A stretch of DNA of 34,924 nt from a bacterium (GTDB lineage Bacteria > Patescibacteriota > Dojkabacteria > SC72): assembly GCA_017958745.1 (NCBI GenBank), contig JAGDCC010000008.1:1-34924 (forward strand), read 5' to 3'. The translations under genes and the position numbers were made by a program. Every line of letters begins with the position of its first letter. The first letter of the stretch is position 1. A model generated the notes under the pieces. The model did no database searches. It was not told the origin of the DNA and saw nothing but the letters and a program-made list of their open reading frames with translations. This document shows, in pieces, positions 7,146-24,737 of this stretch.

Positions 7146-7697
7146 TTAATAGGTTTCTATGTCTGTTATTACGTAATCGTATGCTTCTTGGTTAAAAATC
7201 CTGCCACAATATTCGCATTTACCAGATGTGTTGACACTAATACTTACACCACATCCCGGGCATTTTCTTACTGCTTTTATATCTTTAGTCTGTATTTTCT
7301 TTTCTATTGTAAGTTCGTTTGTCTTCTCTATACGTCTATCATTTATACCAGAAACAAAATCGAATGAGTCTTTGTCTACAATATAATCCATATACCTACT
7401 GATTATTGTTACATCTATTATTATTTTATCTTCTGTTATTGTTACATCATCGATAGATGTATCCTTGACGTTTAACTCATCATACATCTGTTTGTGATTA
7501 TTCTTATTAAGCTTTTCTATTTGCTTGTCATATTTCTCTTCTAAATCTTCTCCAAGAAAATGTCTTACTTTATCTAGATTTCCCTGCATAATGGAAGAGA
7601 GAATCATTATAAACATATTATCTACCTTACTTTTAAACATAGCTTCGTTAAAAGTTGGGTCAACTTTTTGTATTTTTTCTAATAGATCTTTATCCAT
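7146..7697 (-). CDS. Soluble Tim44-like domain protein with C-terminal Zn ribbon
   Basis: The N-terminal FNEAMFKSKVDNMFIMILSSIMQGNLDKVRHFLGEDL pattern resembles Tim44-like (PF04280-type) domains. The C-terminus has CPGCG-x9-CEYCG. Confidence 0.6.
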   Translation of the reverse strand: MDKDLLEKIQKVDPTFNEAMFKSKVDNMFIMILSSIMQGNLDKVRHFLGEDLEEKYDKQIEKLNKNNHKQMYDELNVKDTSIDDVTITEDKIIIDVTIISRYMDYIVDKDSFDFVSGINDRRIEKTNELTIEKKIQTKDIKAVRKCPGCGVSISVNTSGKCEYCGRIFNQEAYDYVITDIETY

Positions 7698-7701
7698 ATT
7701 A

Positions 7702-8619
7702 TTAAGATTGTCTAATATTTTCTTTCTTACTTAATACAAAGTCTTTTGCTTTGACAACAATTGTTGTTCCACAGTAAGGGCATTTACCAGAAGCATTCAT
7801 GTTGACTGGAGCACCACAGCTTGGACACTTTTCTACTTTCTCTCCAGATTCTTTATCTCTGACGAAGGTCATTTCATAGTAATTGTTTACTTTGGTTGAG
7901 CTAGAACCTCTTAAGACTTGTTTTGTTTCTTTGTTAACAATGTAATCGTACATAGAGATAGACATGTTTGTTGTAATACTTACCATGTTGTTTTCCTCTT
8001 TGATATCTGTGATTACGAATTTGTGTAATTTAATACTGCTCATGATGTTTTGTTGCTTCTTTGCTCTTAGTGTATCCAATTGCATTGAATACATATTAAA
8101 CATCTCATCTGTAACAATATCTCGTATAGTGTCGGTATCGAAGTCCATCCATGCTTTTTGTAAATTCTTGTATATACCAAATGCTTGTAGCTTGAAGGTA
8201 TCTAAATCAAAATCTGGTATTAGTTTCTTTATCTTCTTTATTGTTACTCCAGATAATTCTGCTGTAACGTTTGAAGCGTTATCGTCTCCATCATCTGTTG
8301 GAGTAATACCACTTGAACCGCCATTATTACCTCCAGAAGAATTGCTAATTGCTACTATTACTATAATTATGATTATTACTAGAATTAGTGTTCCAATTGA
8401 ACCTGAGCCACCACCACTTCCTGAGTAGTGATAATCATCATCGTAGTCGTATGAACTACTGCTGGAACTTGACCATCCTGAATCGTAGCTACTAGAACTT
8501 CCGGAGTCATAGCTTGTATCAAAGCCACTGTCTGCTATAACTCTATTTCCGATGGAAAGAATAAGCAACAACGATACAAGCAGTGCTGTTAATATGTTCT
8601 TATTCTTTCTATCTTTCAT
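7702..8619 (-). CDS. Membrane Tim44-like domain protein with S/D/Y/G-rich ectodomain and C-terminal Zn ribbon
   Basis: Start set at ATG 8617-8619 (MKDRKNKNILTALLVSLLLILSIG signal/TM). Order: low-complexity SYDSGSSSSYDSGWSSSSSSSYDYDDDYHYSGSGGGSGS, then a second TM (IGTLILVIIIIIVIVAI), then a Tim44-like block (FDLDTFKLQAFGIYKNLQKAWMDFDTDTIRDIVTDEMF), then CPSCG-x9-CPYCG. The track ORF extends to a TTG at 8691. Confidence 0.6.
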   Translation of the reverse strand: MKDRKNKNILTALLVSLLLILSIGNRVIADSGFDTSYDSGSSSSYDSGWSSSSSSSYDYDDDYHYSGSGGGSGSIGTLILVIIIIIVIVAISNSSGGNNGGSSGITPTDDGDDNASNVTAELSGVTIKKIKKLIPDFDLDTFKLQAFGIYKNLQKAWMDFDTDTIRDIVTDEMFNMYSMQLDTLRAKKQQNIMSSIKLHKFVITDIKEENNMVSITTNMSISMYDYIVNKETKQVLRGSSSTKVNNYYEMTFVRDKESGEKVEKCPSCGAPVNMNASGKCPYCGTTIVVKAKDFVLSKKENIRQS

Positions 8620-8669
8620 AGCAACTTTGTTTATTAATTTACTAAATAAATAAGCTAAAACAATAGAGC

Positions 8670-9845
8670 TTATTCTAATTTCGTTCCACAATGTGGACAG
8701 AATTTAGCTGTACTGGAAACCTCTTTTCCACACTCAGTACAGAATTTTTTGTCTCCTGTATCTTCTTGTTTCTCTTCTGCCTTTTCTTCATGCTGGAACA
8801 TTGTTCCGTTTTCTGGTTGATTTGTTTCTGGGTTGTATGCTCCTTGGTTATTAGCATTATTCTGGTTTGCAGCATTCATTGCACTTGCCCCTGCATTTTG
8901 TGCCATATTCATGCCCATAAAACCTACTGCTGCACCACTACTATTTTCTGCTGCAGATTTCATAGCATCTGCTGTTGCTGATGCCATTAAACCAGATTGC
9001 ATTGCACTATTGGAAAAGATTGCAGCATCATCTATCTTACTGACTCTCTTCATTGATTCGTCTGTAAGGTTAATATCTGCAATTGCAACATCAGTTATTT
9101 CTAATCCATAACCTTTTCTCCAAGAATCATTGAGGATTGTGTTCATTTCATCAGAGATGTCTCCTCCATACAATCCCATGTCTCCAAAGGATACTTTGTT
9201 TTTACGCATTACTATAGAAATAGCTTTTGTAAGCTGTTCTACAAATTTTGCTTTCAATTGACTACCAATTACTTCTTCGCATGTAACTGTATCTTTTGCA
9301 TTTGCTCCAATTACATTGTGTACTAAAGTTACAGGATCTTTAACTTGGTATGCATATTCTCCAAAGAATGTAACTTCTAACATACCGTATTTCTCATCTG
9401 TGATTTTCTTTGGTTGTGGAGAACCAAATTTGTTTCCTGCAATTACTAGTAAGTTTACATAGTAAACTCTTTGATCTTTTGCAGTTTGACCTCCGTATGT
9501 GAATCTGTTTCCAATTGTCTTAATTGTTGCTTTAATACTCTCTCCTAAACTACCTGCGAAGATAGAAGGCTCTGAGCTTTTATCAAAAGTATATGTTCCA
9601 GGTTCTGCACTAAAATCTATAATTGCACCATTGTCTATTACCATCATTGCCATTCCTTCTGGAACAACGATTGCACTTCCGTTGGAAATAATATTATCGC
9701 TAGGGTTTGTATTTCCATCTCCATGATGGATTTCTCCTCTTTGTATTAAAACATCTTTATCTATAGTAGGGCAGGTTACATACTCCTTAAATTGATCTCC
9801 TAATGTGGATGATACGGAGGATTTTAATGCTTTTATTAATCCCAT
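8670..9845 (-). CDS. SPFH/Band-7 family protein (COG4260, YdjI-like) with C-terminal Zn ribbon
   Basis: MGLIKALKSS...NIISNGSAIVVPEGMAMMVIDNGAIIDFSAEPGTYTFD...KDQRVYYVN is the pattern of the 'virion core protein-like' SPFH family. The C-terminus has CTECG-x10-CPHCG. Confidence 0.75.
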   Translation of the reverse strand: MGLIKALKSSVSSTLGDQFKEYVTCPTIDKDVLIQRGEIHHGDGNTNPSDNIISNGSAIVVPEGMAMMVIDNGAIIDFSAEPGTYTFDKSSEPSIFAGSLGESIKATIKTIGNRFTYGGQTAKDQRVYYVNLLVIAGNKFGSPQPKKITDEKYGMLEVTFFGEYAYQVKDPVTLVHNVIGANAKDTVTCEEVIGSQLKAKFVEQLTKAISIVMRKNKVSFGDMGLYGGDISDEMNTILNDSWRKGYGLEITDVAIADINLTDESMKRVSKIDDAAIFSNSAMQSGLMASATADAMKSAAENSSGAAVGFMGMNMAQNAGASAMNAANQNNANNQGAYNPETNQPENGTMFQHEEKAEEKQEDTGDKKFCTECGKEVSSTAKFCPHCGTKLE

Positions 9846-9901: not shown

Positions 9902-9986
9902 ATTGGTTATTACTTTGATTTTTATTTTTTATTTTTATATGGTATATATAATATTAAAGATTAGTATTATTTTATAGAATATAAAA

Positions 9987-11792
9987 ATGAGCGATTATAA
10001 TTTTTATTCTCAAGGTCAGAAGAAGAAAAATACTGCCAAGATTGCTCTTGTTGTAATTGCCGTGTTGGCTTTTGTTTCTCTTTGTTTTGGTGCTTTTTAT
10101 CTTTACCTTTATAGCGGAGATAAGGAATGTAAATATGTTAAGTATCGTTATAATGTTCTTAATTCTGATTCTTCTGTTAATGAGTTTATAAACGAAACAG
10201 TCCTTTCTGATTGTGATGGAGAAATAAAGTCTAGTAGTAATTTGTTTGTTACTAATGTCTCAAAGGATTCTGATAAGAAGGTAACTATTTCTTATGATGC
10301 AGGACTAAATAGTAAGTCTGGAGAAAGAACAATTATTCTTCCAGCTAAGGAGAAATTGGGTATTGATAAATCTGCGTATGCAGACGATAACGCTTCTCCT
10401 ATGAAGTTAAATATGACATTGGAGATTAGTGATAAGTATAATGAGTTTAAGTCTAAGATTTGTAACAAGTTTAATCTTTCTTCTTGTGTTGTAAATATCA
10501 CATTAAGAGACTGGAGTATTGAAGAAAATAATATTGTTATTACAAAGGACAATTTGGGAGAATATAAAAATTATTTACTGAAATATGGAACTAAGTGGAT
10601 AATGCAGAATATGAATTTCTCAAAGAGTAACAGACTTTATTCTTCCATTGCGTCAATATATGCAAATATTTCTTCTACATTAAAACCTCTAATTAGTGAT
10701 GCATCTTATGTTGAAGAAGTATCCGAATTTCTGAATAGATCTGTGCAGGGAAGAATTCTTAATAACTCTTCTAGTGGACTATCTGCTGTAACATGTTTAG
10801 ATATTGAAGAGATGATTACTAATATAGAAAAGTGCGGTGCAGCTTGCGAAAATGAATTGGGAGATGATTTTATTAGTAAGTTAGAAAAGACATGTGGTGT
10901 ATTTGATTCTTCCTATGTCTCAGATTATACGTTAAAGAGTAGTTTTACTCAGCTATCTCCGTATGTTAGTATGTCTCTTGCATGGAAATCCCATTCTAAT
11001 GATAGAGAATTTTTAGAGACAACATCTCAGATAATCAATGATTTCCTAAGTGATTCTTATTTTTCTGACAATAATCTATATGATACTTATCTTACTTCTG
11101 ATGCTTCTGTCGCTTTGAATATTATTTCTAAGAATGCAGATGCCTGCGGAAGTACTTGTGCAACTATTCTTTCCTCTACTCTTAGCAAATTTAATAAATA
11201 TCTTACTAAAAAAGCTGATAATGAGAGAGAAAATGTTTTTGTTAGCGGTTCTAATTACTTGACAGGAGAGGAGGTTACTTCTGCTGCTGAGGAGGATTAT
11301 TATTTATTGTGGTTAGATGGAAACAGTCTCAAAAGACAGGCTTATCTTTTGTATGAAACAGATAATAAATATACTTCTGCACAGAAGCAGAGTGTTTTGC
11401 TTTATTCTTATTATAATTATATAAACAATCGTTACAAGGATACATTTAAGTATTACGGTGCATATAATGTTGCTGATACTGCACTGGAACTTTATAAGTA
11501 TACGAAAAATCCGATATATTTAGATGAAGTGAATTATATCTACAAGAATGGTGATGCTATGAAATATAATGGGGAAAATGCTAAAGACAATGGATTGATA
11601 GGTTATTTGTCTTACATTAGTTTCTACAATAATTATAAGGATTTGAATAACTTATCTAGTGATGATATGATGAGCTTGGTTGCTAAGAATGCAAATAGAC
11701 TTTTAAGTATTATAGATGAACAACCGGAAGAATATGGTTATACATCTATTTTTACAGATAGCTATTTATTAAATATTATTTCTACATTATAA
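9987..11792 (+). CDS. Membrane-anchored (single N-terminal TM) extracytoplasmic protein, unknown family
   Basis: TM IALVVIAVLAFVSLCFGAFYLYLY followed by about 550 aa rich in N/S/Y. I recognise no motif. The stop lies 4 nt before the next gene. Confidence 0.6.
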   Translation: MSDYNFYSQGQKKKNTAKIALVVIAVLAFVSLCFGAFYLYLYSGDKECKYVKYRYNVLNSDSSVNEFINETVLSDCDGEIKSSSNLFVTNVSKDSDKKVTISYDAGLNSKSGERTIILPAKEKLGIDKSAYADDNASPMKLNMTLEISDKYNEFKSKICNKFNLSSCVVNITLRDWSIEENNIVITKDNLGEYKNYLLKYGTKWIMQNMNFSKSNRLYSSIASIYANISSTLKPLISDASYVEEVSEFLNRSVQGRILNNSSSGLSAVTCLDIEEMITNIEKCGAACENELGDDFISKLEKTCGVFDSSYVSDYTLKSSFTQLSPYVSMSLAWKSHSNDREFLETTSQIINDFLSDSYFSDNNLYDTYLTSDASVALNIISKNADACGSTCATILSSTLSKFNKYLTKKADNERENVFVSGSNYLTGEEVTSAAEEDYYLLWLDGNSLKRQAYLLYETDNKYTSAQKQSVLLYSYYNYINNRYKDTFKYYGAYNVADTALELYKYTKNPIYLDEVNYIYKNGDAMKYNGENAKDNGLIGYLSYISFYNNYKDLNNLSSDDMMSLVAKNANRLLSIIDEQPEEYGYTSIFTDSYLLNIISTL

Positions 11793-11796
11793 AAAT

Positions 11797-14700
11797 ATGA
11801 GAAAATATCTATTAAACATAACCATTGTTGTATTTACTGTTTTTTTGTTATTTCTTTTTAGTGGAAATGATGTTTATGCAGGAGTTGTAACTGTCCCATG
11901 TACGGCTTCTTGTGGATCGGGAGGTGGAACCTCTCAGCCTGTAGGTGGTAGTCCTGGTGATGTTACGACAGGTGAATACGCAGAAAATTATCAATGTAGA
12001 TGTGAATCTTGTAATGGAGGGAATGGAAATGCGACACAAACTCCTGGTGTATGTCCTGCTTGTACTGGTAACTGTACTAGTGCAACAATTTGTACTTCAT
12101 ATGTTTGGGTAATGGATTGTTATACAGATGCAGAAGGTAATATAACAAGTTGTGGCCCTTGTTATCCGGTTTGCCAGAATTATATATGTCAGGAATGTTG
12201 CTGTGAATGTGAAAATCCGTGTCCAGAAAAACCAACGTGTGGTCCAGAACCGTTTTATGAAGAAGGTTGGGTTTGGACAGGTGAGTATATAACAACTAAG
12301 TCAACCTATCCTGGTTGTGAATCTTGTAACTGTCATTGTGATCCATGGGAGTTAATATGTAAGGAAAAAAAATATGAGCCAATTATAATTCCAGAATGTG
12401 GTAATGGTATCCGAGATGCAGGAGAGCAGTGCGATCCTGTATTAGATGGCCCATCATGTTCTGCTAATTGTACATGGGCGAAGAAAAACTGCGGTGATAG
12501 TGTATGGCAATATGATGAGTATTGTGAGAAAGGTGATCCTGTTGGTGTACATGTTGCTTGGGATTCAAAAGAGTGTGACCAGAGTAAATGTGAGCCAAAG
12601 AAGGAGAAGGATGACGGTTTCTGTGGTGATGGTATTATTGATGCTGGGGAAGAGTGTGATCCTGGTAAGGATGGAACTGGTAATCGTGATACCTCTTGTA
12701 CGGCTGATTGTAAGCGAGCCAATGATGCTCCTTATTGTGGAAATGGGCAAGTAGATAATGGTGAAGTATGTGATTATTCTGCACCAGGTTACGATAGAGA
12801 AAATTGTACTGAAGAGTGTGAACCATGTGACCATTGTGTTTGTGAAGATTTGGAGTGTGATGTAGAGAAAGAAAGTGCCTATAGATCTACTGTACAGTTC
12901 TCCCCTTTTAATAAAAACAATATTAACAATTATAAATATGAGGTAAAAGGTTGGTCTGGAATAACGACATTTAATCCAACAATAGTAACAGCCACTTATT
13001 ATAATTTAACTACAAGTAATTATCAGAATCTTGAGGCTCTGTATTTCTGGATGGCAGAAGTTGGGGAAAGTATGGATGGAGGAATTCAGTTCTTAAATGA
13101 TTCAGTATCTGTCTCTCAGGGAAGCTTAAAGAGTAATAACAACTTTGGTTTTATGCTAAAGAAAACATACACATCCTGTCCAAGTGGAAAATCTTGTCTA
13201 AGCAATGAGTGGAAGAGTGGTAATAAAGGTAATTATGAAATATATCTTCCACAAAAGAAGGGTTCTTATGGACTTGAATGGGTTAAGTATGATGATAAAG
13301 GCTTGAACAGTTCTTTCTATATCTATGGTGCAAATGGTAAAAAAATGGTTCTTATAGAGATAGAAAATATAGAATATGACACAGATAAAACTTCTTATAA
13401 AGAAAAGGTAAAGCTTGTATTTAAGATGACATTCTTAAACTCTGATAATTTGCCAAGTGGAGTTGGTCCTGGAGAATATGAGCAGGTTCCTTCTGCAAAA
13501 TATCAGGTTTATAGTATGGCATTGAATGAATGGATGTTTACGACCAAGAGGTATTATGAGAGATATAAGAATGTTGCAAATGATGTTCCAAGAAATCTGA
13601 GTGAAAGTGTTACTACTGTTGGGCCAGATGGTAAGCCAGTTGCAGGCTCTTATCCAGTTGCTTTGAATAAATTGAAGGATAATGAGATAAGAAATTGGGA
13701 AGCAAGTCATTACAGAAAGAATGGATTATGGGGTGTAGATTTAGACTCTCCTGTTGTTGGGAATTTTACAAGTGGAAGTGGTAATGCACTTGTAATTGTA
13801 GGTAATTCTGGTTCTACAGTTAATGCGAACTGGAAGGCAACGGATATAGGTTCTGGTGTTGTTTATTCTGTAATGAATGGTTATCGTATTCTTGATGACA
13901 GTGAGGTAGATGACCAGACACTTTTGCGTAATGCTCCTATTACATATAAAAAGGTTCGAAGTAGTGGAACAATAGAAAGAACAGGAGTTTTAACTTTGCA
14001 AAAAGATTATGATGAATCTAAGATAGGATTTGTTAAAGTTGCTGTATTTCCAGACACAATCTGGAGTAAAAAAGAGGTTACTGAGGAAACAAGCAAGAAT
14101 AATTATTTAACTTATCCAACTGAAGTAGAGAAATCTTCTGATGAGATTAATTTGGGGAATAATAGGGGAGGAACAATTAGGTTATTCTTAACAGTCTTTG
14201 ACCAAGCAGGTAATACTATGCAGACTACAGTTACGTATGGTCTTTCAGAGTGGATACAAACTGCTGGTGGATTATTCTATTCCAAGGAAGGTACTAACTT
14301 TAATACAAGAGTATTTAAAGGTGATTCTGAACTATGGACTGGTAATATGAAATCTTTGTTTAATCGCTATAATATAACAGAAAAAACAACAAATATTGCT
14401 ACCGAGGTTATGGCAACTTCCTCTGATAAAACAACATCTCTTTATAAGTTATCTAGTGCTACAGATACTGCACAATTTTATAAATATGCTGGTTTGGATA
14501 CAGATAAAATGTTTAGTACTTATACAAGCCAAATGTTGCAAACATATAGATCCTATGTTCAAACAGAGAATGGCTCCAATCCAACTACTGGTGCAGTATG
14601 GAAATCATGTGAGGCTGGAGAGGGTAAATGTTCTGAGACTTGGACAGGAAGGGTTACAACTATTTCTGGTTTAAATAGTATTTTTAATAATAATAGAAAT

Positions 14701-15297
14701 GCTGCAGCTGGGTATTATGTAGATGGAGATTTAACAATAGGAGAGAATTCTAAAAGTAGTACGTTTGTTTGTGATGGTAGAGTAGTAGTTGTTGTTAACG
14801 GTAGGTTAAATATATATCCTAACATTACTAATGAGAATCCTACAAATGCTTGTGTGTTTATAGCACGAGGAGATGTACATATTTATGGAGGAAAAGATAG
14901 TACGACAGATTATAAAGACAGTTTTGATGGTACTGGATTTTCTTCTAATGCAAACCTCGTAGCTGATGAATTGCATGCATTTATTCTTACAGATGGTGTA
15001 ATTGTACTTGAGAAGGAGGAACAAACCTCTTTGCAGGATCCTTTATTTGTAGAGGGTGGGTTAGTATCTTTCACCAAGAGCTTGGATGATTATGCGAAAT
15101 CAAGTGATAGCGATGAGTATCAAATAAAGGAAGTAAGTTCTAGTATCGTTTTAAGAAGAGTCTTGGATGTTACAGATAGAAATATGTATCCTGTTCTTTC
15201 TGTTGTACAAAATCCTAAATATGGAAAAGCAGTAGAGGAAGTACTTGGTGCAGTAAGATTAGTTTACCAAACAGAAGTAGGATTCAAGGTTTATTAA
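11797..15297 (+). CDS. Giant secreted protein: Sec signal peptide, ~45-Cys module with three CGNGxxDxGExCD repeats, large C-terminal domain
   Basis: Signal peptide MRKYLLNITIVVFTVFLLFLFSGNDVYA|G. The Cys-rich module spans about 11899-12861. The remaining ~800 aa are Cys-poor and beta-rich by eye. Confidence 0.8.
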   Translation: MRKYLLNITIVVFTVFLLFLFSGNDVYAGVVTVPCTASCGSGGGTSQPVGGSPGDVTTGEYAENYQCRCESCNGGNGNATQTPGVCPACTGNCTSATICTSYVWVMDCYTDAEGNITSCGPCYPVCQNYICQECCCECENPCPEKPTCGPEPFYEEGWVWTGEYITTKSTYPGCESCNCHCDPWELICKEKKYEPIIIPECGNGIRDAGEQCDPVLDGPSCSANCTWAKKNCGDSVWQYDEYCEKGDPVGVHVAWDSKECDQSKCEPKKEKDDGFCGDGIIDAGEECDPGKDGTGNRDTSCTADCKRANDAPYCGNGQVDNGEVCDYSAPGYDRENCTEECEPCDHCVCEDLECDVEKESAYRSTVQFSPFNKNNINNYKYEVKGWSGITTFNPTIVTATYYNLTTSNYQNLEALYFWMAEVGESMDGGIQFLNDSVSVSQGSLKSNNNFGFMLKKTYTSCPSGKSCLSNEWKSGNKGNYEIYLPQKKGSYGLEWVKYDDKGLNSSFYIYGANGKKMVLIEIENIEYDTDKTSYKEKVKLVFKMTFLNSDNLPSGVGPGEYEQVPSAKYQVYSMALNEWMFTTKRYYERYKNVANDVPRNLSESVTTVGPDGKPVAGSYPVALNKLKDNEIRNWEASHYRKNGLWGVDLDSPVVGNFTSGSGNALVIVGNSGSTVNANWKATDIGSGVVYSVMNGYRILDDSEVDDQTLLRNAPITYKKVRSSGTIERTGVLTLQKDYDESKIGFVKVAVFPDTIWSKKEVTEETSKNNYLTYPTEVEKSSDEINLGNNRGGTIRLFLTVFDQAGNTMQTTVTYGLSEWIQTAGGLFYSKEGTNFNTRVFKGDSELWTGNMKSLFNRYNITEKTTNIATEVMATSSDKTTSLYKLSSATDTAQFYKYAGLDTDKMFSTYTSQMLQTYRSYVQTENGSNPTTGAVWKSCEAGEGKCSETWTGRVTTISGLNSIFNNNRNAAAGYYVDGDLTIGENSKSSTFVCDGRVVVVVNGRLNIYPNITNENPTNACVFIARGDVHIYGGKDSTTDYKDSFDGTGFSSNANLVADELHAFILTDGVIVLEKEEQTSLQDPLFVEGGLVSFTKSLDDYAKSSDSDEYQIKEVSSSIVLRRVLDVTDRNMYPVLSVVQNPKYGKAVEEVLGAVRLVYQTEVGFKVY
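12397..12774 (+). repeat. Three copies of a cysteine-rich repeat (CGNGIRDAGEQCD / CGDGIIDAGEECD / CGNGQVDNGEVCD)
   Basis: Copies at 12397-12435, 12622-12660 and 12736-12774. They resemble the Myxococcus-type cysteine-rich repeat (TIGR02232/DUF4215), from memory. Confidence 0.6.
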
Positions 15298-15315
15298 TAT
15301 GCAATGGCATATTAA
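15294..15315. terminator. Bidirectional hairpin between convergent genes
   Basis: ttaatatgc (15294-15302) / gcatattaa (15307-15315), loop aatg. The left arm contains the TAA of the 1166-aa gene, and the right arm abuts the TAA (15316-15318, minus strand) of the 81-aa gene. Confidence 0.55.
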
Positions 15316-15561
15316 TTAAACACCTCTAAAAGGGTTGCTGATGGATAATGCAGACACAGCAACCTTTTCTTTAGGGTTGGCAATGTCTTTGGCTATGCTT
15401 ACTTTTTCCGTATTTTTTCTTTCTGCATCTTGTATGAGAGAAAGGTCATCATTTAATTGTTGTGTGTTGTTGGTGGATACGGAATTTCCAAAAATGCTGT
15501 TATCTATAACTGGTGTAGCATTTGCTATGTCTTTTGATGTCTTGTTAAAAATTATTCCCAT
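15316..15561 (-). CDS. Small hydrophilic protein (81 aa), last gene of the VirB4 module
   Basis: The ATG overlaps the VirB4 3' end by 17 nt. There is no TM and no recognisable motif. Confidence 0.45.
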   Translation of the reverse strand: MGIIFNKTSKDIANATPVIDNSIFGNSVSTNNTQQLNDDLSLIQDAERKNTEKVSIAKDIANPKEKVAVSALSISNPFRGV

Positions 15562-18013
15562 TGTTTACCTCCTCCTCTTCTTCTGGGATAGCACTTCCTG
15601 TCGCATGATAGACTCCCTTTTGTGTTTCTCTTCTAGATTTCACAACTTGTGCGCTTATAGAACCTTCATCTAACTCAGTTAGGAAGTCTTTTTGGTATTT
15701 GTATCTCTCTGGATTTCTCTCCATATCCTGCTGTCTTAGTCTTTCTTCCAGTTCTCTCTTATACTGTTCCCTCTCTTTGTTTAAAGATTCCTCTTGAGAT
15801 TCTGTCTTTGCAATTGCACCTTGAATAATTTGTTCCTGTCTTTTAGTGTTTATACCAGATTTTGCTTGACTTACCTCTGGAGCGTAAACTTGTGCAAGCT
15901 CTTCTATCGTTCTTGTATCTGGTAGCCCTTTTCTAGCCTCTAGCTTTTCTAAATCCTTTGGGATTGATGTAACAATTTCATGCTCTGCAACGCTTGCTAA
16001 GACCTGTATTCCAACATGGCTTGCACCAGCAAAGAACAAACCTTGTCCAATATCTGCATTCTGTAGGAAAAATTTCTCTCCATCCGAGAGATTAAAGACA
16101 TCTTGTAGTCTTTGAACAGATGTTGATGTCTGCTTCATAAGCATCTGTAAGGAAGAGTTTGTAATGATAGCTCTCCCCATATCGTTATTAAGAAAATCTT
16201 CTACATCCTGTGAAATTGTTGTCAAACCAAGATAATACTTTCTAGCTCTCTTTGCAATTGAATACATAAACTCTGCGGATTCTTTTGATAACATCATGTA
16301 CCAAGCCTCATCTACAATAAGAATTCTTCTCTTTCTATCTTTTCTAACCTTTGTCCAAATAAAATCCAACATAAGGTACATAGCCATAGGTTTTAGCTCA
16401 TCTTGCAAATCTCTTATACTAAAGACAGTAAGAGGATTGTTTATTTCGAAATTGGTTTCCTCATTAAAAACTCCCGCACTGCTACCCATGATGTATCTTT
16501 CTAATCTATTCGCAAGACCTCTAGCCTCTGGTTCTGCCATACCTTTAAGTACCTTGTATAAATCTTCAAGCATAGGTGGTCTTCCGTTTTGAGTTCTTGG
16601 GTCGAAAGTAATACCTTTTTCTCTGTATGTAAGAATGAGTGCTTTGTCTAGAATAGAACCTTCTATATTAGATACTCCACCGTATAGTATTCTTAAAAAT
16701 CCTTGTAAGGATAGAAGCTTTGTTCTTAACTCGTCATCACCTTCTTCTGTTGCACCTGAAAGCTCGAATGGATTCATTTTATTTCCTTTATCTTGAGAGA
16801 AAGAAATATATGCACCATTTACAGCTCGTGCTAAGTTTTCGTATTCTTTTTCTGGGTCTATAATGATTATTTCTGTTCCAAGCATCAAGCTTCTGATTGC
16901 TTCTAATTTGACAAAATAACTCTTTCCTGAACCAGATTTAGCAAAGACAACAGTATTTGCATTTTCTAATTCGAAACGATCAAAGATAACAAGACTCTTG
17001 TTGTGCTGATTTAATCCATACATGATTCCGTGATCCATTGTTAACTCAGATGTAACAAATGGAAATGTGGTAGCAAGTGAGGTAGTATCCATATTTCTTG
17101 TTATGTAAAGATTGTCTATTCCACATGGCTCACTAGACACAAAAGCCTGCTCTTGCATAAGTGTTGCTGGTTTTGCAGTTACGTTCATAGCTGCTAGAGT
17201 AGAGATTACGTTTCTAGATATTTTTTCCAATGCTTCCATACTATTGGCATACATTGTGATGTACATAGCGAAGTGGAAAAACTTTTCTGTACCTTCTGCG
17301 ATAGAATCCTGCAATTGTTGTGCATCTGATAGCGCGACTTTTAGAGATGGATCTACTACTTTTCTGTCCTCCATTTGACCGTAAAGAGTAGCTTCCATTT
17401 CTCCTATCTTCTTTTTTAATTTGTCTAAAACAGTCTTAGAATCTACTGGGTAGTAAAATGTGCTGATACGTAAGGAATGTTCAAAATTGATGATTGGGGA
17501 AAGCCAGTTAGGACCTACAAACCTTGGGTAACCATCAACAAATACTGTCTTAAAGTAATAATCTCCCATCTGTAAATGATTAAAATCAATTTCCATGTCT
17601 ATAGGAGCAATTAAATCCTGTATAGAAACATTCTGTGTATCGGCTATTTCCAAAGGCCTTTCTGGTGGTATTTGTTCTTTTTCTTGGTTAGCTTCTTCTG
17701 CTTTTTTGGTTGTATTGGAACTACTGTTGTTTTTCTTGCTGTTTGCCTCTGCAAGTTTATCTAATAATGCAAATAAAGGGTTTTTATTGGTTTTCTTCTT
17801 TTCTTCTTCAACAAGAATATCTTTGCTTTTAGCTTTGCTACTACTATCATCTCCTTTTTTATCTCTTACTTCTTGAATTATTTCCGATTCTGCTTTGTTG
17901 AATTCTGCAATTTTATCTCCAGCAGATTGAAGACCTCTAGCTCCGTCATTAAGCATTGTTGTTGTCTGACTTGTAAATGTTCTATTGTAATTATTTGAAC
18001 TCATGTCTTCCAT
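15545..18013 (-). CDS. virB4: VirB4/TraC/PrgJ-family type IV secretion ATPase
   Basis: Walker A VFAKSGSGKSYF and Walker B RRILIVDEAWYMM. VirB4-type N-domain (HLQMGDYYFKTVFVDGYPRFVGPNWLSPII...LRISTFYYP). K/E/S-rich N- and C-terminal extensions. Confidence 0.85.
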   Translation of the reverse strand: MEDMSSNNYNRTFTSQTTTMLNDGARGLQSAGDKIAEFNKAESEIIQEVRDKKGDDSSSKAKSKDILVEEEKKKTNKNPLFALLDKLAEANSKKNNSSSNTTKKAEEANQEKEQIPPERPLEIADTQNVSIQDLIAPIDMEIDFNHLQMGDYYFKTVFVDGYPRFVGPNWLSPIINFEHSLRISTFYYPVDSKTVLDKLKKKIGEMEATLYGQMEDRKVVDPSLKVALSDAQQLQDSIAEGTEKFFHFAMYITMYANSMEALEKISRNVISTLAAMNVTAKPATLMQEQAFVSSEPCGIDNLYITRNMDTTSLATTFPFVTSELTMDHGIMYGLNQHNKSLVIFDRFELENANTVVFAKSGSGKSYFVKLEAIRSLMLGTEIIIIDPEKEYENLARAVNGAYISFSQDKGNKMNPFELSGATEEGDDELRTKLLSLQGFLRILYGGVSNIEGSILDKALILTYREKGITFDPRTQNGRPPMLEDLYKVLKGMAEPEARGLANRLERYIMGSSAGVFNEETNFEINNPLTVFSIRDLQDELKPMAMYLMLDFIWTKVRKDRKRRILIVDEAWYMMLSKESAEFMYSIAKRARKYYLGLTTISQDVEDFLNNDMGRAIITNSSLQMLMKQTSTSVQRLQDVFNLSDGEKFFLQNADIGQGLFFAGASHVGIQVLASVAEHEIVTSIPKDLEKLEARKGLPDTRTIEELAQVYAPEVSQAKSGINTKRQEQIIQGAIAKTESQEESLNKEREQYKRELEERLRQQDMERNPERYKYQKDFLTELDEGSISAQVVKSRRETQKGVYHATGSAIPEEEEEVNNGNNF

Positions 18014-18014
18014 T

Positions 18015-18638
18015 TTAGTCTTCTGTTGGATTATATATAGAATAAAACTCTGTAATTAACTCTTTATTTGTTAGCTGGTGGCCAGTTAATCCCATTCTTC
18101 CTAACTGCTTCAAAATATGATCTCTTTTAGGATATAGGTAAATCTTTGCTTTTTCTAGTACTGTCTCCAAGTTTTGTTCTTGTGCACTATCTGAATCTTT
18201 CTTTCCACCAAGTGGATTAATTGTTGACATGGAGGTATATGTGTAAGGAATAACAATGAAGAAGCTTTTATCCAATACCTCATTCTGGATAATTAATTTC
18301 TGTACAAAAACTGTGTATATATCTAGCTGTTTCCTAAGACCATCGCTCATAGCTCTTTGTTTTTGCTCGTCAAGATAATCAAGGTAATTGCTAATATCTA
18401 TTCTTTTTGTTCTAATGAGAATCTGTATTCTAAAACTAAGAGAATTAAGAAGTCCTGCAAAAGCATAGATCTTATTGTCTTGTTCATAATCTGCAAGAAG
18501 CTCAAAGTTAATAGAAGATGTCTGTATTACCATACTGACACTACCGTTCTTATTTACTACTAAATCATCTGCAATCTGTTTTACTGCAAGACTGTCTTGT
18601 GTAGAAGCTTTTGCTCTTGCTCTTGCGTTTCTATCCAT
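18015..18638 (-). CDS. Hypothetical T4SS-associated protein resembling a stand-alone VirB4 N-terminal domain
   Basis: SLAVKQIADDLVVNKNGSVSMVIQTSSINFELLADYEQDNKIYAFAGLLNSLSFRIQILIRT resembles the N-terminus of Gram-positive VirB4-like ATPases, by eye. The stop lies 1 nt before the VirB4 ATG, and the start overlaps the PrgI-like gene by 8 nt. Confidence 0.45.
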   Translation of the reverse strand: MDRNARARAKASTQDSLAVKQIADDLVVNKNGSVSMVIQTSSINFELLADYEQDNKIYAFAGLLNSLSFRIQILIRTKRIDISNYLDYLDEQKQRAMSDGLRKQLDIYTVFVQKLIIQNEVLDKSFFIVIPYTYTSMSTINPLGGKKDSDSAQEQNLETVLEKAKIYLYPKRDHILKQLGRMGLTGHQLTNKELITEFYSIYNPTED

Positions 18639-19512
18639 TCGTTAATGTGCTTATTTTAATTGGATTTTTGCTATCTGCTAGTTTTTTTGTTAATGCAATT
18701 TCGACATCAGGGAATATAAATTTAGAATGCTTAAAGCTTAGCACATAACTGCCTTCATCCCAATGCTTGTTTGATAGAAAATAACCATTAGGACCTGTCT
18801 TATTAGCATATAATATTCTTCCATCTTTTGACTTAAGGTATGTTGTTACATTAGTTATTGGTCTGTAGTCTTTTGTACATAACCATACATTGATATTTCC
18901 AGGAAGGTCATCTTGTCCTTCTATAGTAAATTGATAATTACCAATATTATCTTCTGTTATGAATATATGGTTCTCATCTAGTGGTGCTGCTGGTTGCTCT
19001 GCAAATGTGGTGGTGTTAAGAGTATCTATGTCTCCAATTGTTGCTTCTTGCTCCTTCTCAAATTTTGTCGCTTCATCAATGTTCTTTTGTATACCATCTA
19101 TACTTGTGTCTTCTCCTGCACCGATTATCTTTTTCTTAGTGCTTTGATCACTTGCGACAAGTCTTCCATCTTCTGTTGGCTTTACTGCTGGTTTGTTACG
19201 CTCTTGTTTCATTTCTTTGCTTAACCAAACTCTTTGAGTAGGGGCATTTATTGCCGTAAAATAATTCTTGAGAAAAACATCAGCATCTTGTCCGTTAATT
19301 GGTACCATTCCCATAAAGCATCCAATACCTCCAACCATAATTGCAGCAGGAATAGAAAGCTGTGGCGGTAAGATGTGTTCTGACGTCCAGTTTATAAGGA
19401 TTCCTGCGAGTCCAAGTCCCCCAGCTATCCACACAAATTGTTTGATAGTAAACCTCTCGAACAATTTGAATTGTACGTCTAATACATTTTGTGGTATCGC
19501 ATGTTGTCGCAT
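18631..19512 (-). CDS. PrgI-family (VirB3-like) membrane protein fused to a C-terminal beta-sandwich-like domain
   Basis: N-terminus MRQHAIPQNVLDVQFKLFERFTIKQFVWIAGGLGLAGILIN plus a second TM fits the PrgI pattern. The C-terminus (NINVWLCTKDYRPITNVTTYLKSKDGRILYANKTGPNGYFLS...GSYVLSF) resembles a CarboxypepD_reg-like fold. Confidence 0.65.
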   Translation of the reverse strand: MRQHAIPQNVLDVQFKLFERFTIKQFVWIAGGLGLAGILINWTSEHILPPQLSIPAAIMVGGIGCFMGMVPINGQDADVFLKNYFTAINAPTQRVWLSKEMKQERNKPAVKPTEDGRLVASDQSTKKKIIGAGEDTSIDGIQKNIDEATKFEKEQEATIGDIDTLNTTTFAEQPAAPLDENHIFITEDNIGNYQFTIEGQDDLPGNINVWLCTKDYRPITNVTTYLKSKDGRILYANKTGPNGYFLSNKHWDEGSYVLSFKHSKFIFPDVEIALTKKLADSKNPIKISTLTNG

Positions 19513-19663
19513 ATATAGTCATTTTATACTATATATGTTGTTGTGTCTAATCTTAGACTGCGTTTGCTAAGCTTTTTGTAATAAATAATTTTAATTGTTA
19601 CGGAGCGAAATAACTACTAAATATGCTGTTGTAGTGGCACTTTCCTTCGCTTTGATAAAGCTA

Positions 19664-19692
19664 TTGACACCGGTATGATAGTATCATATACT
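19664..19692 (+). promoter_or_regulatory. Sigma-70-type promoter of hrcA-grpE-dnaK
   Basis: TTGACA (19664-19669), 17-nt spacer, TATACT (19687-19692). Confidence 0.75.
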
Positions 19693-19718
19693 TAGCAGAT
19701 AAACTTAGTGACTGCTAA
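19692..19718 (+). promoter_or_regulatory. CIRCE-like HrcA operator
   Basis: TTAGCAGAT-N9-GACTGCTAA with perfect 7-nt arms TTAGCAG/CTGCTAA. It abuts the -10 and lies just upstream of the hrcA ATG. Confidence 0.75.
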
Positions 19719-19722
19719 ACCT

Positions 19723-20451
19723 ATGGAACTCACAGAAAGACAAAAAGAAATATTAATGGCTATTATAAATGAGTTTATGGATGAGGCTGATGAAGTTGGC
19801 TCTTTGGCATTAGTAGAAAAATATGATTTGGGTGTCAGTTCTGCAACTATTAGAAATGAAATGGTTAAATTAATGAAGCTTGGCCTTTTGGAGAAGAGTA
19901 ATATCTCTTCTGGAAGAATGCCTACAGATCAGGCATTAAGACTTTATGTTTCTAGAGCATTAAGAAATAACGGCTCTAATCCATTGAGTGTTGCGGAAAT
20001 AAGACAAGGAATTTATAGAGATAGATTCTCTCAAGATGTCGTTAAGAGAACGATTTTGAATCTTCTCTCCGAACAGTGTGAATCATTGGTCTTTATGATG
20101 TTGGATGGAGATTTGACCTATTGGGGTGTAAATCAATTGCTTAAATACGATGAGTTTAGAGATGTAGAGAAATTAGAAACAATATTTACATTTTTAGAGA
20201 ATAGTAGTCTTATGAATGACCTTGTAGAGAGGTATTCTCACGATAGTGGTGTAACATTGTTAATCGGAAAAGAGTCAGGAATCAATAACATGAGTGAATG
20301 TGCAATTGCTTTCACTAAGATATCTTTTTGGAATAAAGATGCTTGTTTTGTCGGTGTTATTGGCTCTAAGAGAATGGATTATGCAAGAGTAATTCCTTCT
20401 CTAAAGGAAGTTAGAAATGCTTTAGAAATGTCCATATCTGGATGGAGATAA
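19723..20451 (+). CDS. hrcA: Heat-inducible repressor HrcA (short form, 242 aa)
   Basis: MELTERQKEILMAIINEF...VGSLALVEKYDLGVSSATIRNEMVKLMKLGLLEK is the HrcA winged-helix N-terminus. I chose ATG 19723 over the track GTG 19708 because the latter lies inside CIRCE. Confidence 0.85.
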   Translation: MELTERQKEILMAIINEFMDEADEVGSLALVEKYDLGVSSATIRNEMVKLMKLGLLEKSNISSGRMPTDQALRLYVSRALRNNGSNPLSVAEIRQGIYRDRFSQDVVKRTILNLLSEQCESLVFMMLDGDLTYWGVNQLLKYDEFRDVEKLETIFTFLENSSLMNDLVERYSHDSGVTLLIGKESGINNMSECAIAFTKISFWNKDACFVGVIGSKRMDYARVIPSLKEVRNALEMSISGWR

Positions 20452-23081: not shown

Positions 23082-23921
23082 ATGCTTCCGGTGAAAGAGA
23101 TTAAAGAATTTGTAATAAGTGTTGCTCCAATTTTTTTTATTTTATCTTTTGCATGTGTAGTTTCTGTAGGATTGTTTGCGTACAGTATTAATAACGAAAA
23201 ACAGTTAGCTAATGAGAAGGTTTTGTCTCTTGATGAACAAATCAGTGATTTAAGTAGAGCGAGTGATAGACAAAAAGAGATGATTAAAGACCTGGAAGAA
23301 TCTGTTAAAGATATGGAAAATACAATTCAGGAACTGGAAAATAAAGGAGAGGAGTTGAAAAAGAAAGGTGACGAATTGGAAAGTACTATAACAAGATTGT
23401 CTAGGAGAGATTTTTCTGATGAAGATGTAAAAATGACATTACAAAACTATTTAGATCTTCTGACTGCAATTTCCGTTTACAGATATGTGGAATGGTTAGG
23501 CTTCGAGAATTATAGGAATGATGATGCTGAATGTCGAAAAGGAGACATTGATTCACTAGGATTGAGTGTTTTACATGGAACAAATATTCCATACACAGAG
23601 GTTTTTGCAAGATTACGAGATTATATGTCTGAGGAATTTGTATGGGAGTTTATTAGTGGAGGAAATTCTCGTTATAGTTTACACTACTCTGTTGGGAATG
23701 ATGGTTATTTTTGCTACTCTAGTGGATCCGGTGTTGGTACGCACCTATATTTTACAGTCGCTAGTGTTGCTGTAGAAGATAATCACTCGGGATTATATGT
23801 TGCGGATGTTGTAAATGTATATGGTCTTGATTCTTCTGATGTTTTTAAAGTTGAGTTTAGAGTTGAAGACCATAATGGTAGGTGTGTAATTTCTTATATA
23901 AAAAGTGATTATGAATTTTAA
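23082..23921 (+). CDS. Membrane-anchored coiled-coil protein, paralog A (unknown family)
   Basis: N-terminal TM, a K/E-rich coiled coil, and a C-terminal domain (LQNYLDLLTAI...YTEVFARLRDYMSEEFVW...GYFCY...SGLYVADV...VISYI). Confidence 0.7.
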   Translation: MLPVKEIKEFVISVAPIFFILSFACVVSVGLFAYSINNEKQLANEKVLSLDEQISDLSRASDRQKEMIKDLEESVKDMENTIQELENKGEELKKKGDELESTITRLSRRDFSDEDVKMTLQNYLDLLTAISVYRYVEWLGFENYRNDDAECRKGDIDSLGLSVLHGTNIPYTEVFARLRDYMSEEFVWEFISGGNSRYSLHYSVGNDGYFCYSSGSGVGTHLYFTVASVAVEDNHSGLYVADVVNVYGLDSSDVFKVEFRVEDHNGRCVISYIKSDYEF

Positions 23922-23927
23922 GCTTTT

Positions 23928-24737
23928 ATGAGAAATAAAAAAAAAGTAATAATATGTATATGCGATGCTTTCTTAACCTTGTTCTTGATTGCTGTTGGGT
24001 TGTTTGCATATCATCTTTATAAAGAAAAGCAGATTGTTAACGATAAAGTATTGTTACTTAATGGACAAGTAGAGGAATTAAAAAAAACAAATTCTGAACA
24101 AGAAAGTGCTATAGAGGAAATGGAAGATACAATTCGTGAGATGTCTGTCTCTATCCGTGGTGTGGAAAATAGTAATTATAATCAGGAATATAAAAACCAT
24201 AGATTGGAGAACACTGTAACAAAATTGGTAGGTTTACCGGTATCTTTCTCGGAGGAAGAAATAAAAACGGCGTTACAAAACTATTTAGATTTGCAGACAG
24301 CCATAAAAGAAGGAAAATATTTAGATTGGTTAGGTTTTAAGGATTATCTAGGCAATAATGTCGAGTGTTATAAGTCTTTAATAGATCAATCGCTTGTCCA
24401 CAGAACGAAACTTTTGTATACAGAAGTTTTTACAGGTTTGCGAGACTATATGTCTGAGGAGCTAGTATGGGATTATGTAGGTAATCATCTTCTTGGTAGT
24501 TATTCTGTTAGTAAAGATGGTTATTTCTGCTATATGACAGATAGTTATATTAGTGTTCATAATAGTTACAGGGTTAAAAAAGTTATTGTTAAGGATAGTT
24601 CTTCTGGTTTGTATATTGCAGATGTTACTGAAGTCGGCTCTGCAGATGGTGATTCATCTGCTGTTTTCAATGTTGAGTTTAAGATTGAAGATTATAAAGG
24701 TAAAAGTGTAATTTCTTATATAAACTGGTTGAATTAG
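23928..24737 (+). CDS. Membrane-anchored coiled-coil protein, paralog B (unknown family)
   Basis: Same architecture as paralog A, 6 nt downstream. Shared blocks: LQNYLDLQTAI, YTEVFTGLRDYMSEELVW, GYFCY, SGLYIADV, VISYI. Confidence 0.7.
   Translation: MRNKKKVIICICDAFLTLFLIAVGLFAYHLYKEKQIVNDKVLLLNGQVEELKKTNSEQESAIEEMEDTIREMSVSIRGVENSNYNQEYKNHRLENTVTKLVGLPVSFSEEEIKTALQNYLDLQTAIKEGKYLDWLGFKDYLGNNVECYKSLIDQSLVHRTKLLYTEVFTGLRDYMSEELVWDYVGNHLLGSYSVSKDGYFCYMTDSYISVHNSYRVKKVIVKDSSSGLYIADVTEVGSADGDSSAVFNVEFKIEDYKGKSVISYINWLN

Follow-up and report, generated by a model that had tools for sequence, protein, structure and literature searches.

What does a VirB4 ATPase do in a bacterial chromosome when the rest of a type IV secretion system (T4SS) is not at its side? 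This question is raised by a four-gene cassette on contig JAGDCC010000008.1 (assembly GCA_017958745.1) of a member of the Dojkabacteria (Patescibacteriota), of which we analyzed a stretch of 34,924 nucleotides (nt), here referred to as the window. An earlier reading of the letters alone, which we refer to as the sequence-only reading, had described four minus-strand genes for a PrgI-like protein, a 207-amino-acid (aa) protein, a VirB4 ATPase, and an 81-aa protein, and had suggested that this motor, located among housekeeping genes, was domesticated for a function other than conjugation.

Based on the analyses described here, the cassette most probably represents the cytoplasmic-membrane ATPase core of a Patescibacteria-type T4SS, derived from the FATA class of mating pair formation (MPF) systems, that is located in the Dojkabacteria chromosome, has its partners encoded elsewhere, and serves a non-conjugative, host-dependent lifestyle. 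This system has already been described across the Patescibacteria, i.e., the candidate phyla radiation (CPR), and the cassette is a well-conserved working copy of it and not a new type of machine. A role other than conjugation is plausible and the best reading. Domestication is in fact the accepted view because a Patescibacteria-wide clade of non-conjugative VirB4 proteins has already been published (PMC12102498; see also PMC12857230).

The cassette encodes a VirB4 ATPase of the CD1110 family

In an ORF check, the four minus-strand open reading frames (ORFs) of the sequence-only reading were recovered with identical boundaries. The largest (15545 to 18013) encodes an 822-aa protein that matched the NCBIfam model NF045971 ("VirB4-like conjugal transfer ATPase, CD1110 family") over residues 37 to 669 with 397.6 bits (cutoff, 325) as well as the Pfam families P-loop_TraG, AAA_10, DUF87, and CagE_TrbE_VirB. 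The last of these (PF03135) identifies the VirB4-type N-terminal domain, with a marginal score of 22.9 bits at a cutoff of 21 over residues 227 to 299. A profile of the window protein and ten homologues matched the C-terminal domain of VirB4 (PDB 4AG5) with an E value of 5.8e-57. The protein has the Walker A (GSGKS) and Walker B (IVDEAW) motifs that had already been pointed out; in an 11-sequence alignment, G361, G363-K364-S365, and V567-D568-E569-A570-W571 are invariant, as are many other residues of the VirB4 core. From the N to the C terminus, the protein consists of a variable low-complexity region (residues 1 to 130), which opens with a conserved NNYNRTF motif, an N-terminal domain (approximately 133 to 340), the P-loop C-terminal domain (approximately 340 to 690), and a tail of ~130 residues (approximately 690 to 822) whose sequence is kept across the Dojkabacteria homologues in the alignment.

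We identified >6,000 VirB4 homologues at an E value of ≤1e-10. The best 120 are 64 to 78% identical to the window protein, with one (locus L001) at 94% and more than 100 of the listed homologues at 65 to 71%, and all of those among these 120 for which a source is named come from Candidatus Dojkabacteria or candidate division WS6. The public records of the scaffold and of L001 place the VirB4 start at the second ATG (819 aa; window 18004 to 18013); the first ATG (822 aa), located 1 nt past the stop codon of the upstream gene, is favored by the ME[DEN]... N termini of the other species in the alignment. Scaffold_27 of ENA record ERZ28653451 matches the window cassette except for 2 nt.

VirB4 is accompanied by PrgI-like, TrsD-like, and s81 proteins

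The first gene of the cassette (18631 to 19512, minus strand) encodes a 293-aa PrgI/VirB3-like membrane protein. This assignment is supported by a match to Pfam PrgI (PF12666) above the gathering score (30.7 bits; cutoff, 27; residues 6 to 87), a two-helix hairpin, and the position of the gene directly upstream of trsD-virB4, and it agrees with the sequence-only reading. In the AlphaFold2 (AF2) model, the membrane hairpin is formed by helices at residues 23 to 44 and 50 to 69, and the orthologue in locus L002 also has two hydrophobic segments. Farther downstream, the protein has a disordered linker (approximately residues 118 to 176) and then a C-terminal transthyretin/CnaB-like beta-sandwich (approximately 182 to 288) modeled with a predicted local distance difference test score (pLDDT) of 80 to 90. 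For this domain, Foldseek returned carboxypeptidase-D transthyretin-like/CarboxypepD-regulatory, CnaB, and pilin domains (E values of 2e-4 to 1e-3), and some homologues match PF09430/PF22904. Conservation among 74 Dojkabacteria homologues covers the N-terminal region as well as the C-terminal domain. There are four basic residues in the N-terminal 25 residues, none in the short loop between the helices, and seven in the 45 residues past helix 2. This charge distribution suggests that both termini are probably cytoplasmic, which would place the beta-sandwich on the side of VirB4.

The 207-aa product of the second gene (18015 to 18638, minus strand), which the sequence-only reading had left anonymous, is predicted to be a soluble TrsD/TraD-like protein, with no transmembrane (TM) segment predicted, and a distant relative of the N-terminal region of VirB4. 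It matched NCBIfam TrsD (NF041427) with an E value of 4.6e-7 and 29.9 bits; because the curated cutoff of 200 is not reached, we refer to the protein as TrsD-like and not as a member of TrsD. It also matched residues 99 to 232 of the Mbov_0397-family VirB4 model (E value of 6.6e-7, far under the curated cutoff), and the 822-aa protein aligned to residues 267 to 889 of the same model. Homologues of the 207-aa protein bear the Pfam domain PF26593 (TraC-like), and phmmer gave an E value of 1e-28 to the protein encoded directly upstream of virB4 in a Pontibacillus cluster described below. The top 13 Foldseek matches of its AF2 model (pLDDT, 65) in the PDB were all to R388 TrwK/VirB4, with weak E values of ~0.02, and a TrsD-like profile gave no match to PDB sequences. 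The position of the gene directly before virB4 is kept in every locus.

The last gene (15316 to 15561, minus strand) encodes a small hydrophilic protein of 81 aa, here named s81, for which we obtained no Pfam or NCBIfam match and no predicted TM segment. Its C-terminal motif ...AL.L.NPF(R/K)G is conserved. An s81 homologue is present in the equivalent position in 75 of 85 clustered sources and in all 61 loci with the complete four-gene order. A search of 1.84 billion representative proteins returned two matches, one of which is s81 itself. So far, s81 is known only from Dojkabacteria-type loci, and it appears to be a fast-evolving accessory protein that is conserved in place.

Junctions and boundaries of the cassette

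The four genes are closely packed, and the junctions given in the sequence-only reading could be read from the sequence as described: the genes for the PrgI-like and the 207-aa proteins overlap by 8 nt (ATGGATAG), the latter gene and virB4 are separated by a 1-nt gap (TAA-A-ATG), and virB4 and s81 overlap by 17 nt, with a GGAGG sequence 6 nt ahead of the s81 ATG. Spacing is similarly tight across loci, with −4 to +5 nt at the PrgI/TrsD junction, −14 to +4 nt at the TrsD/VirB4 junction, and an overlap of about 20 to 47 nt at the VirB4/s81 junction. In contrast to the strong GGAGG of s81, the gene for the PrgI-like protein has no Shine-Dalgarno sequence (window 19510 to 19549, minus strand), and the mRNA from which this first gene of the cassette is translated may have no leader or almost none. 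A promoter-like site (TAGACA-17-TAAAAT; 19521 to 19549, minus strand; 10 of 12 consensus matches) ends 8 nt ahead of the ATG of this gene. Because fewer consensus sites were observed in the region (11) than the mean of shuffled sequences (15.7), we treat this site as a pattern match and as weak evidence for a promoter.

The sequence-only reading had taken the divergent hrcA region upstream and a convergent hairpin downstream as the boundaries of the unit. On the upstream side, a 195-nt divergent intergenic region separates the cassette from the hrcA-grpE-dnaK cluster, with HrcA identified by Pfam and TIGR00331. On the downstream side, the 18-nt convergent spacer lies within an AT-rich palindrome (15293 to 15316; 10-bp stem and 4-nt loop) that spans the convergent stop codons of s81 and of a gene for a 1166-aa protein and has a folding energy of −13 kcal/mol (z = −4.2). 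Both boundaries stand, the second one as a palindrome but not as a canonical terminator, since the stem has no T-run and the hairpin was not flagged in a terminator scan. We consider it a possible bidirectional terminator.

The cassette is conserved, relocates as a unit, and is under purifying selection

A scan of species-representative genomes yielded 80 loci, in which ORFs were called and clustered; virB4 was callable in 76. When synteny was checked in these loci, as the sequence-only reading had proposed, the complete order PrgI-like, TrsD-like, VirB4, s81 was present in 61 of the 76. Most of the remaining 15 are cut by contig ends, and in the others, including the two most divergent loci, s81 was not recognized by the clustering. 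The common Dojkabacteria context is rpsT-f12-f9-lepA-recF-like-f7(<)-[cassette]-f2(<)-...-dcd-thyX-glyA-folD, in which the immediate neighbors of the cassette encode a nucleotidyltransferase-like protein (f7) and an AAA+ protein with a Lon lid (f2). In the window and in its 94% relative L001, hrcA(-grpE-dnaK) lies upstream and genes for surface proteins lie downstream, with the four cassette genes unchanged. The differing flanks of the unchanged four genes show that the cassette was relocated as one block in the lineage of the window; it is a chromosomal cassette among housekeeping genes, as had been recognized.

Between the window and L001, the ratio of nonsynonymous to synonymous substitution rates (dN/dS) is 0.033 for the PrgI-like, 0.026 for the TrsD-like, 0.031 for the VirB4, and 0.10 for the s81 gene, and 0.009 to 0.054 for the housekeeping flanks hrcA, grpE, dnaK, fusA, tuf, and the SPFH gene. 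Across 50 species, pairwise VirB4 distances track those of LepA (Pearson, 0.83), with mean divergences of 0.305 for VirB4 and 0.248 for LepA. The GC content of the cassette (0.33 to 0.37) is the same as that of its flanks. Based on the conserved order, the low dN/dS, and the congruence of VirB4 with LepA, we conclude that the cassette is intact, is under strong purifying selection, and has a vertically inherited core function.

These data bear on the possibility that the cassette is the remnant or cargo of an integrative and conjugative element (ICE), i.e., a decaying conjugation module left in the chromosome. In line with such an origin, the CD1110 VirB4 family is typical of Firmicute ICEs and plasmids, and the nearest plasmid-borne relatives, which are 30 to 37% identical, in some cases lie beside genes for a type IV coupling protein (T4CP), a relaxase, and an NlpC/P60 protein. 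However, the chromosomal position is conserved across the Dojkabacteria loci retrieved, dN/dS is ~0.03 with catalytic motifs intact, and VirB4 distances follow those of LepA; neither a relaxase nor an integrase domain was detected in the Pfam and NCBIfam scans of the window ORFs, no repeats were found (although no search was aimed at flanking repeats), and the GC content equals that of the flanks. Because of the dN/dS values, the LepA congruence, and the flank-like GC content, a decaying module is ruled out; the ICE-remnant and pseudogene readings were both rejected on conservation, dN/dS, and LepA congruence, and we assign the former a negligible probability.

Search for further T4SS and conjugation genes

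The sequence-only reading had stated that the window contains no VirD4-type coupling protein, relaxase, VirB6/PrgH-like channel protein, or cell-wall hydrolase. We scanned the 20 largest non-ribosomal ORFs of the window with Pfam and/or NCBIfam. In addition, we searched six-frame translations of the window and of all related loci with phmmer. The queries came from a conjugative plasmid of Brevibacillus and from the Pontibacillus cluster and comprised a relaxase, a coupling protein of the VirD4 type, a VirB6/TrbL-like protein, a pilin-like protein, and hydrolases of the NlpC/P60 and M23 types. Within the sensitivity of Pfam, NCBIfam, and phmmer, no relaxase, T4CP, VirB6-like protein, or cell-wall hydrolase was detected in the 34.9-kb window, and the same four functions were not found within ±10 kb of virB4 in the related loci. 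Across the window and the related loci, the phmmer queries matched VirB4, the TrsD-like protein, and, in locus L082 only, two pilin-like ORFs. The window ORFs that could be assigned to families encode YchF, a DUF975 protein, an alpha/beta hydrolase, GroES/EL, RNHCP, LepA, two Tim44-like proteins, an SPFH-zinc-ribbon protein, HrcA, and EF-G; GrpE, DnaK, and EF-Tu were named from the gene annotation of related contigs. No family matches were obtained for two large proteins (601 and 1166 aa) that are secreted or anchored. Among the neighbors of the cassette in other Dojkabacteria, f7 and f2 were considered as hidden T4SS parts and rejected by a check of their families, and f12 (182 aa, three TM segments) and f9 gave no family matches.

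Locus L082 is labeled Nomurabacteria and is the most divergent locus, with a VirB4 that is 58% identical to that of the window. It contains two tandem VirB2/Mbov_0395-like pilin genes for proteins of 112 and 128 aa (positions 61 to 794, minus strand) at a distance of ~7 kb upstream of its cassette, and its PrgI-like protein is longer (370 aa). Using jackhmmer with these two pilin-like proteins, we found no pilin in any other locus.

One interpretation of these findings is that VirB3, TrsD, VirB4, and s81 function as a stand-alone minimal motor without VirB6, pilins, or a coupling protein, which might energize a conduit other than a T4SS, such as type IV pili (T4P), or the neighboring surface proteins. 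We consider this improbable. To our knowledge, no VirB4 works without a membrane channel partner. The interpretation is consistent with the finding that, in the main-group Dojkabacteria loci, virB4 has no other T4SS gene within ±10 kb, with the relocation of the cassette as a four-gene unit, and with reports that VirB4 and T4CP can work with T4P or other machines in some systems (review, PMC12857230). On the other hand, its sole basis is the absence of partner genes nearby, and in L082, the locus that diverges most, two pilin-like genes lie ~7 kb from the cassette. Moreover, according to Quinonero-Coronel et al. (2025), who surveyed 3,035 genomes of Patescibacteria (PMC12102498), unlinked partners are the norm in several Patescibacteria classes, VirD4-like T4CPs are present in 2,918 genomes (96%) and rarely near virB4, and divergent VirB6 proteins and pilins evade hidden Markov models. 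Because partners are usually unlinked, a failure to find them in 35 kb of sequence, or within ±10 kb of virB4 in relatives, is no proof of a solo motor. Slightly less probable still is a four-protein motor in which s81 and the PrgI beta-sandwich couple VirB4 to an envelope conduit other than a T4SS, without VirB6, pilin, or T4CP; if true, this would be the smallest known VirB4-based transport system.

The same survey supports our main explanation. VirB4 was found in 2,417 of the 3,035 genomes, and 2,425 of 2,474 Patescibacteria VirB4 proteins form one clade nested in MPF-FATA (PMC12102498). TrsD is the most abundant accessory component, with 2,272 homologues of which 1,664 adjoin virB4; PrgI/VirB3 also mostly adjoins virB4, and the linkage of VirB6 and VirB2-like pilins to virB4 is variable, with these genes often unlinked (PMC12102498). 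Relaxases were detected in only 103 of the 3,035 genomes, and the authors concluded that the T4SS has been co-opted for non-conjugative use, possibly the import of DNA or other macromolecules (PMC12102498). Dojkabacteria genomes listed in the survey dataset are scored as VirB4 positive, and the conclusions of its preprint name Dojkabacteria as a class. The window cassette has a chromosomal virB4 with linked TrsD-like and PrgI/VirB3-like genes and without a linked relaxase.

A model for the function of the cassette

The cryo-EM structures of the R388 system and the genetics of pCF10 and pIP501 are established T4SS knowledge and provide the basis for a mechanism. By analogy to these systems, the hairpin of the PrgI-like protein would tether a VirB4 oligomer to the membrane. 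The TrsD-like protein and, as suggested by its charge-based orientation, the cytoplasmic beta-sandwich of the PrgI-like protein would dock on VirB4. ATP hydrolysis by VirB4 would then drive both the building of a channel or pilus across the envelope and transport through it. Genes for the channel protein, the pilin, and any coupling protein would lie at other sites of the genome, a common arrangement in Patescibacteria. Such a machine would move macromolecules between an epibiont and its host cell and, thus, serve the host-dependent lifestyle and not conjugation.

Two proposals for the substrate have been published, namely, the import of host nucleic acids and the export of effectors, and a perspective lists effector delivery and nucleotide acquisition as candidate roles (PMC11665869). 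The one species tested so far is the Saccharibacterium Southlakia epibionticum. According to the transposon sequencing (Tn-seq) data of Wang et al. 2023, which are cited in PMC12102498 and PMC12857230, its T4SS genes, including the TrsD, PrgI, and VirB6 homologues and the pilin array, are essential for epibiotic growth. A more specific version of our explanation is that the cassette belongs to a nucleic-acid import machine similar to archaeal Ced or Helicobacter ComB. Several lines of evidence point in this direction: Patescibacteria lack nucleotide synthesis; comEC is described as dispensable in S. epibionticum while the T4SS is essential (PMC11665869, PMC12857230); import was proposed in the survey (PMC12102498); and a 2026 preprint reports that another Patescibacterium feeds on host RNA and has tubular structures or pili that may be T4SS components (10.64898/2026.06.21.733656). 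The window VirB4 also matched CedB (NF041017) with an E value of 1.9e-13. However, the CedB score of 49.9 bits is far under the cutoff of 700 and reflects shared ATPase ancestry, and no CedA-like or ComB-like partner genes were seen in the window. In addition, effector export is cited equally (PMC11665869). We therefore regard import as possible but tentative.

For the T4SS core itself, several points weigh against our explanation. No channel, pilin, or T4CP partner was found in the window or within ±10 kb in the main-group Dojkabacteria loci, and the location of the partners elsewhere is therefore extrapolated from other Patescibacteria classes. The TrsD assignment is based on sub-threshold sequence scores and on a weak fold match of a medium-confidence model (pLDDT, 65). 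Finally, the sequence-only reading had named disabling VirB4 mutations in relatives as evidence that would speak against a domesticated function. A few relatives have a disrupted virB4, namely, loci L089, L013, and L077. In L089, a 13-kb scaffold of the sister sample SAMN15830176, a GAG-to-TAG change converts the codon of the Walker B glutamate E569 to a nonsense codon (position 6357, equivalent to window 16309). The same virB4 contains a scaffold gap of 38 N, such that its apparent fragmentation is partly a gap artifact, and the other cassette genes of L089 are near-identical. The nonsense change is either an assembly or sequencing error or a loss-of-function variant of the population. The other two disruptions are in species-representative loci: in L013, TGA replaces a conserved Gly codon at residue 681, where the C-terminal tail begins, and in L077, the reading frame is shifted around aa 144 to 229. 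These rare disruptions may be assembly errors; alternatively, virB4 could be dispensable in some populations.

The locus does not establish a new principle. It documents a compact four-gene operon as a conserved core in Dojkabacteria, which evolves about as slowly as a translation factor and can relocate as a unit, and it defines a minimal protein set, i.e., the PrgI-like protein with its beta-sandwich, the TrsD-like protein, the extended VirB4, and s81, for structural work and complex prediction.

Neighborhood of the cassette

Window positions 9923 to 15300 form a valley of divergence from L001 that extends into 15300 to 19900: nucleotide identity to L001 is 66 to 85% in the surface-protein genes, 81 to 91% in the cassette, recovering towards hrcA, and 92 to 99% in the flanks. 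The two surface-protein genes (9987 to 11792, 601 aa; 11797 to 15297, 1166 aa, Cys-rich with CGNG..D.GE.CD repeats) have dN/dS values of 0.17 to 0.23. These genes appear to be hypervariable and may function in the interaction with a host, and linked divergence or recombination seems to extend into the cassette.

On the other side of the cassette, the GTG start codon of hrcA lies within a degenerate CIRCE-like inverted repeat or overlaps it (TTAGCAGAT-N9-GACTGCTAA; window 19692 to 19718). A search of the whole window, the region upstream of groES (3002) included, found no canonical CIRCE element within three mismatches. Between dnaK and fusA, two paralogous genes (23082 to 23921 and 23928 to 24737) encode proteins of 279 and 269 aa with an N-terminal TM helix, a coiled-coil, and no family matches. 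They are present in the source scaffold (L088) and absent in L001, where dnaK adjoins fusA, and look like a recent strain-level insertion or deletion. Finally, a run of three genes at positions 7146 to 9845 (minus strand) encodes two Tim44-like proteins, one of which has zinc-ribbon matches, and an SPFH/Band-7 protein that ends in a zinc ribbon; this unusual combination is kept in L001.

Comparison with known systems

The closest counterparts of the cassette are the T4SSs of other Patescibacteria, with which it shares a chromosomal virB4, PrgI/VirB3 and TrsD genes directly upstream, the lack of a linked relaxase or T4CP, vertical inheritance within a class, and MPF-FATA affinity. Saccharimonadia clusters differ in that they add VirB6, an array of VirB2-like pilins, and hydrolases beside virB4, whereas the main-group Dojkabacteria cluster has four genes only, including s81, which is not named among the components in the survey (PMC12102498). 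A further difference is that the window cassette is not near dnaA. The transthyretin-like domain on the PrgI-like protein and the N- and C-terminal extensions of VirB4 are features of these Dojkabacteria cassettes; we did not find them or s81 described.

The order of VirB3-like, (TrsD), and VirB4 genes and their translational coupling are shared with the MPF-FATA systems of pCF10 (PrgI-PrgJ), pGO1/pIP501 (TrsC-TrsD-TrsE/TraC-TraD-TraE), and CTn2 (CD1110). The conjugative systems of this class are carried on plasmids or ICEs together with a relaxase, VirD4/TcpA, PrgH/VirB6, a VirB8-like protein, and a peptidoglycan hydrolase, none of which is linked to the cassette, and VirB4 proteins of Gram-positive conjugative MPF-FATA systems are 30 to 32% identical to that of the window. 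The R388 TrwM(VirB3)-TrwK(VirB4) complex (PDB 7O41, 8RTD), in which the VirB3 hairpin anchors the VirB4 oligomer, serves as a structural template, and TrwK chains are the only consistent fold matches of the TrsD-like model. R388 is, however, a diderm MPF-T system with VirB6/8/10, an outer-membrane core, and pilus components; among PDB sequences, the window VirB4 profile matched 4AG5 only, with no match to R388 TrwK below an E value of 0.001.

In a plasmid collection, the best VirB4 matches were CD1110-type proteins from Firmicutes and Actinobacteria with 30 to 37% identity. Those on an Embleya plasmid (37%) and a Brevibacillus plasmid (32%) belong to ordinary conjugative sets with T4CP, relaxase, and NlpC/P60. 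The closest match in this collection, with 37% identity over the VirB4 core, is on an 898-kb replicon of Pontibacillus sp. ALD_SL1 (NZ_CP062975.1; locus L085, 351.8 to 361.4 kb). As in the cassette, a TrsD homologue and a small PrgI/TraL-like protein are encoded directly upstream of this virB4, and no relaxase is annotated within 9 kb. The Pontibacillus cluster differs from the cassette in that its VirB4 (621 aa) lacks the terminal extensions of the Dojkabacteria proteins and in that it has additional genes for a pilin-like protein of the Mbov_0395 family, a VirB6/TrbL-like protein of 779 aa, and an M23 peptidase of 1050 aa; it lies next to flagellar genes. This gene set resembles the T4SS of Saccharibacteria, and the Pontibacillus cluster may represent a non-CPR sister of the Patescibacteria-type system.

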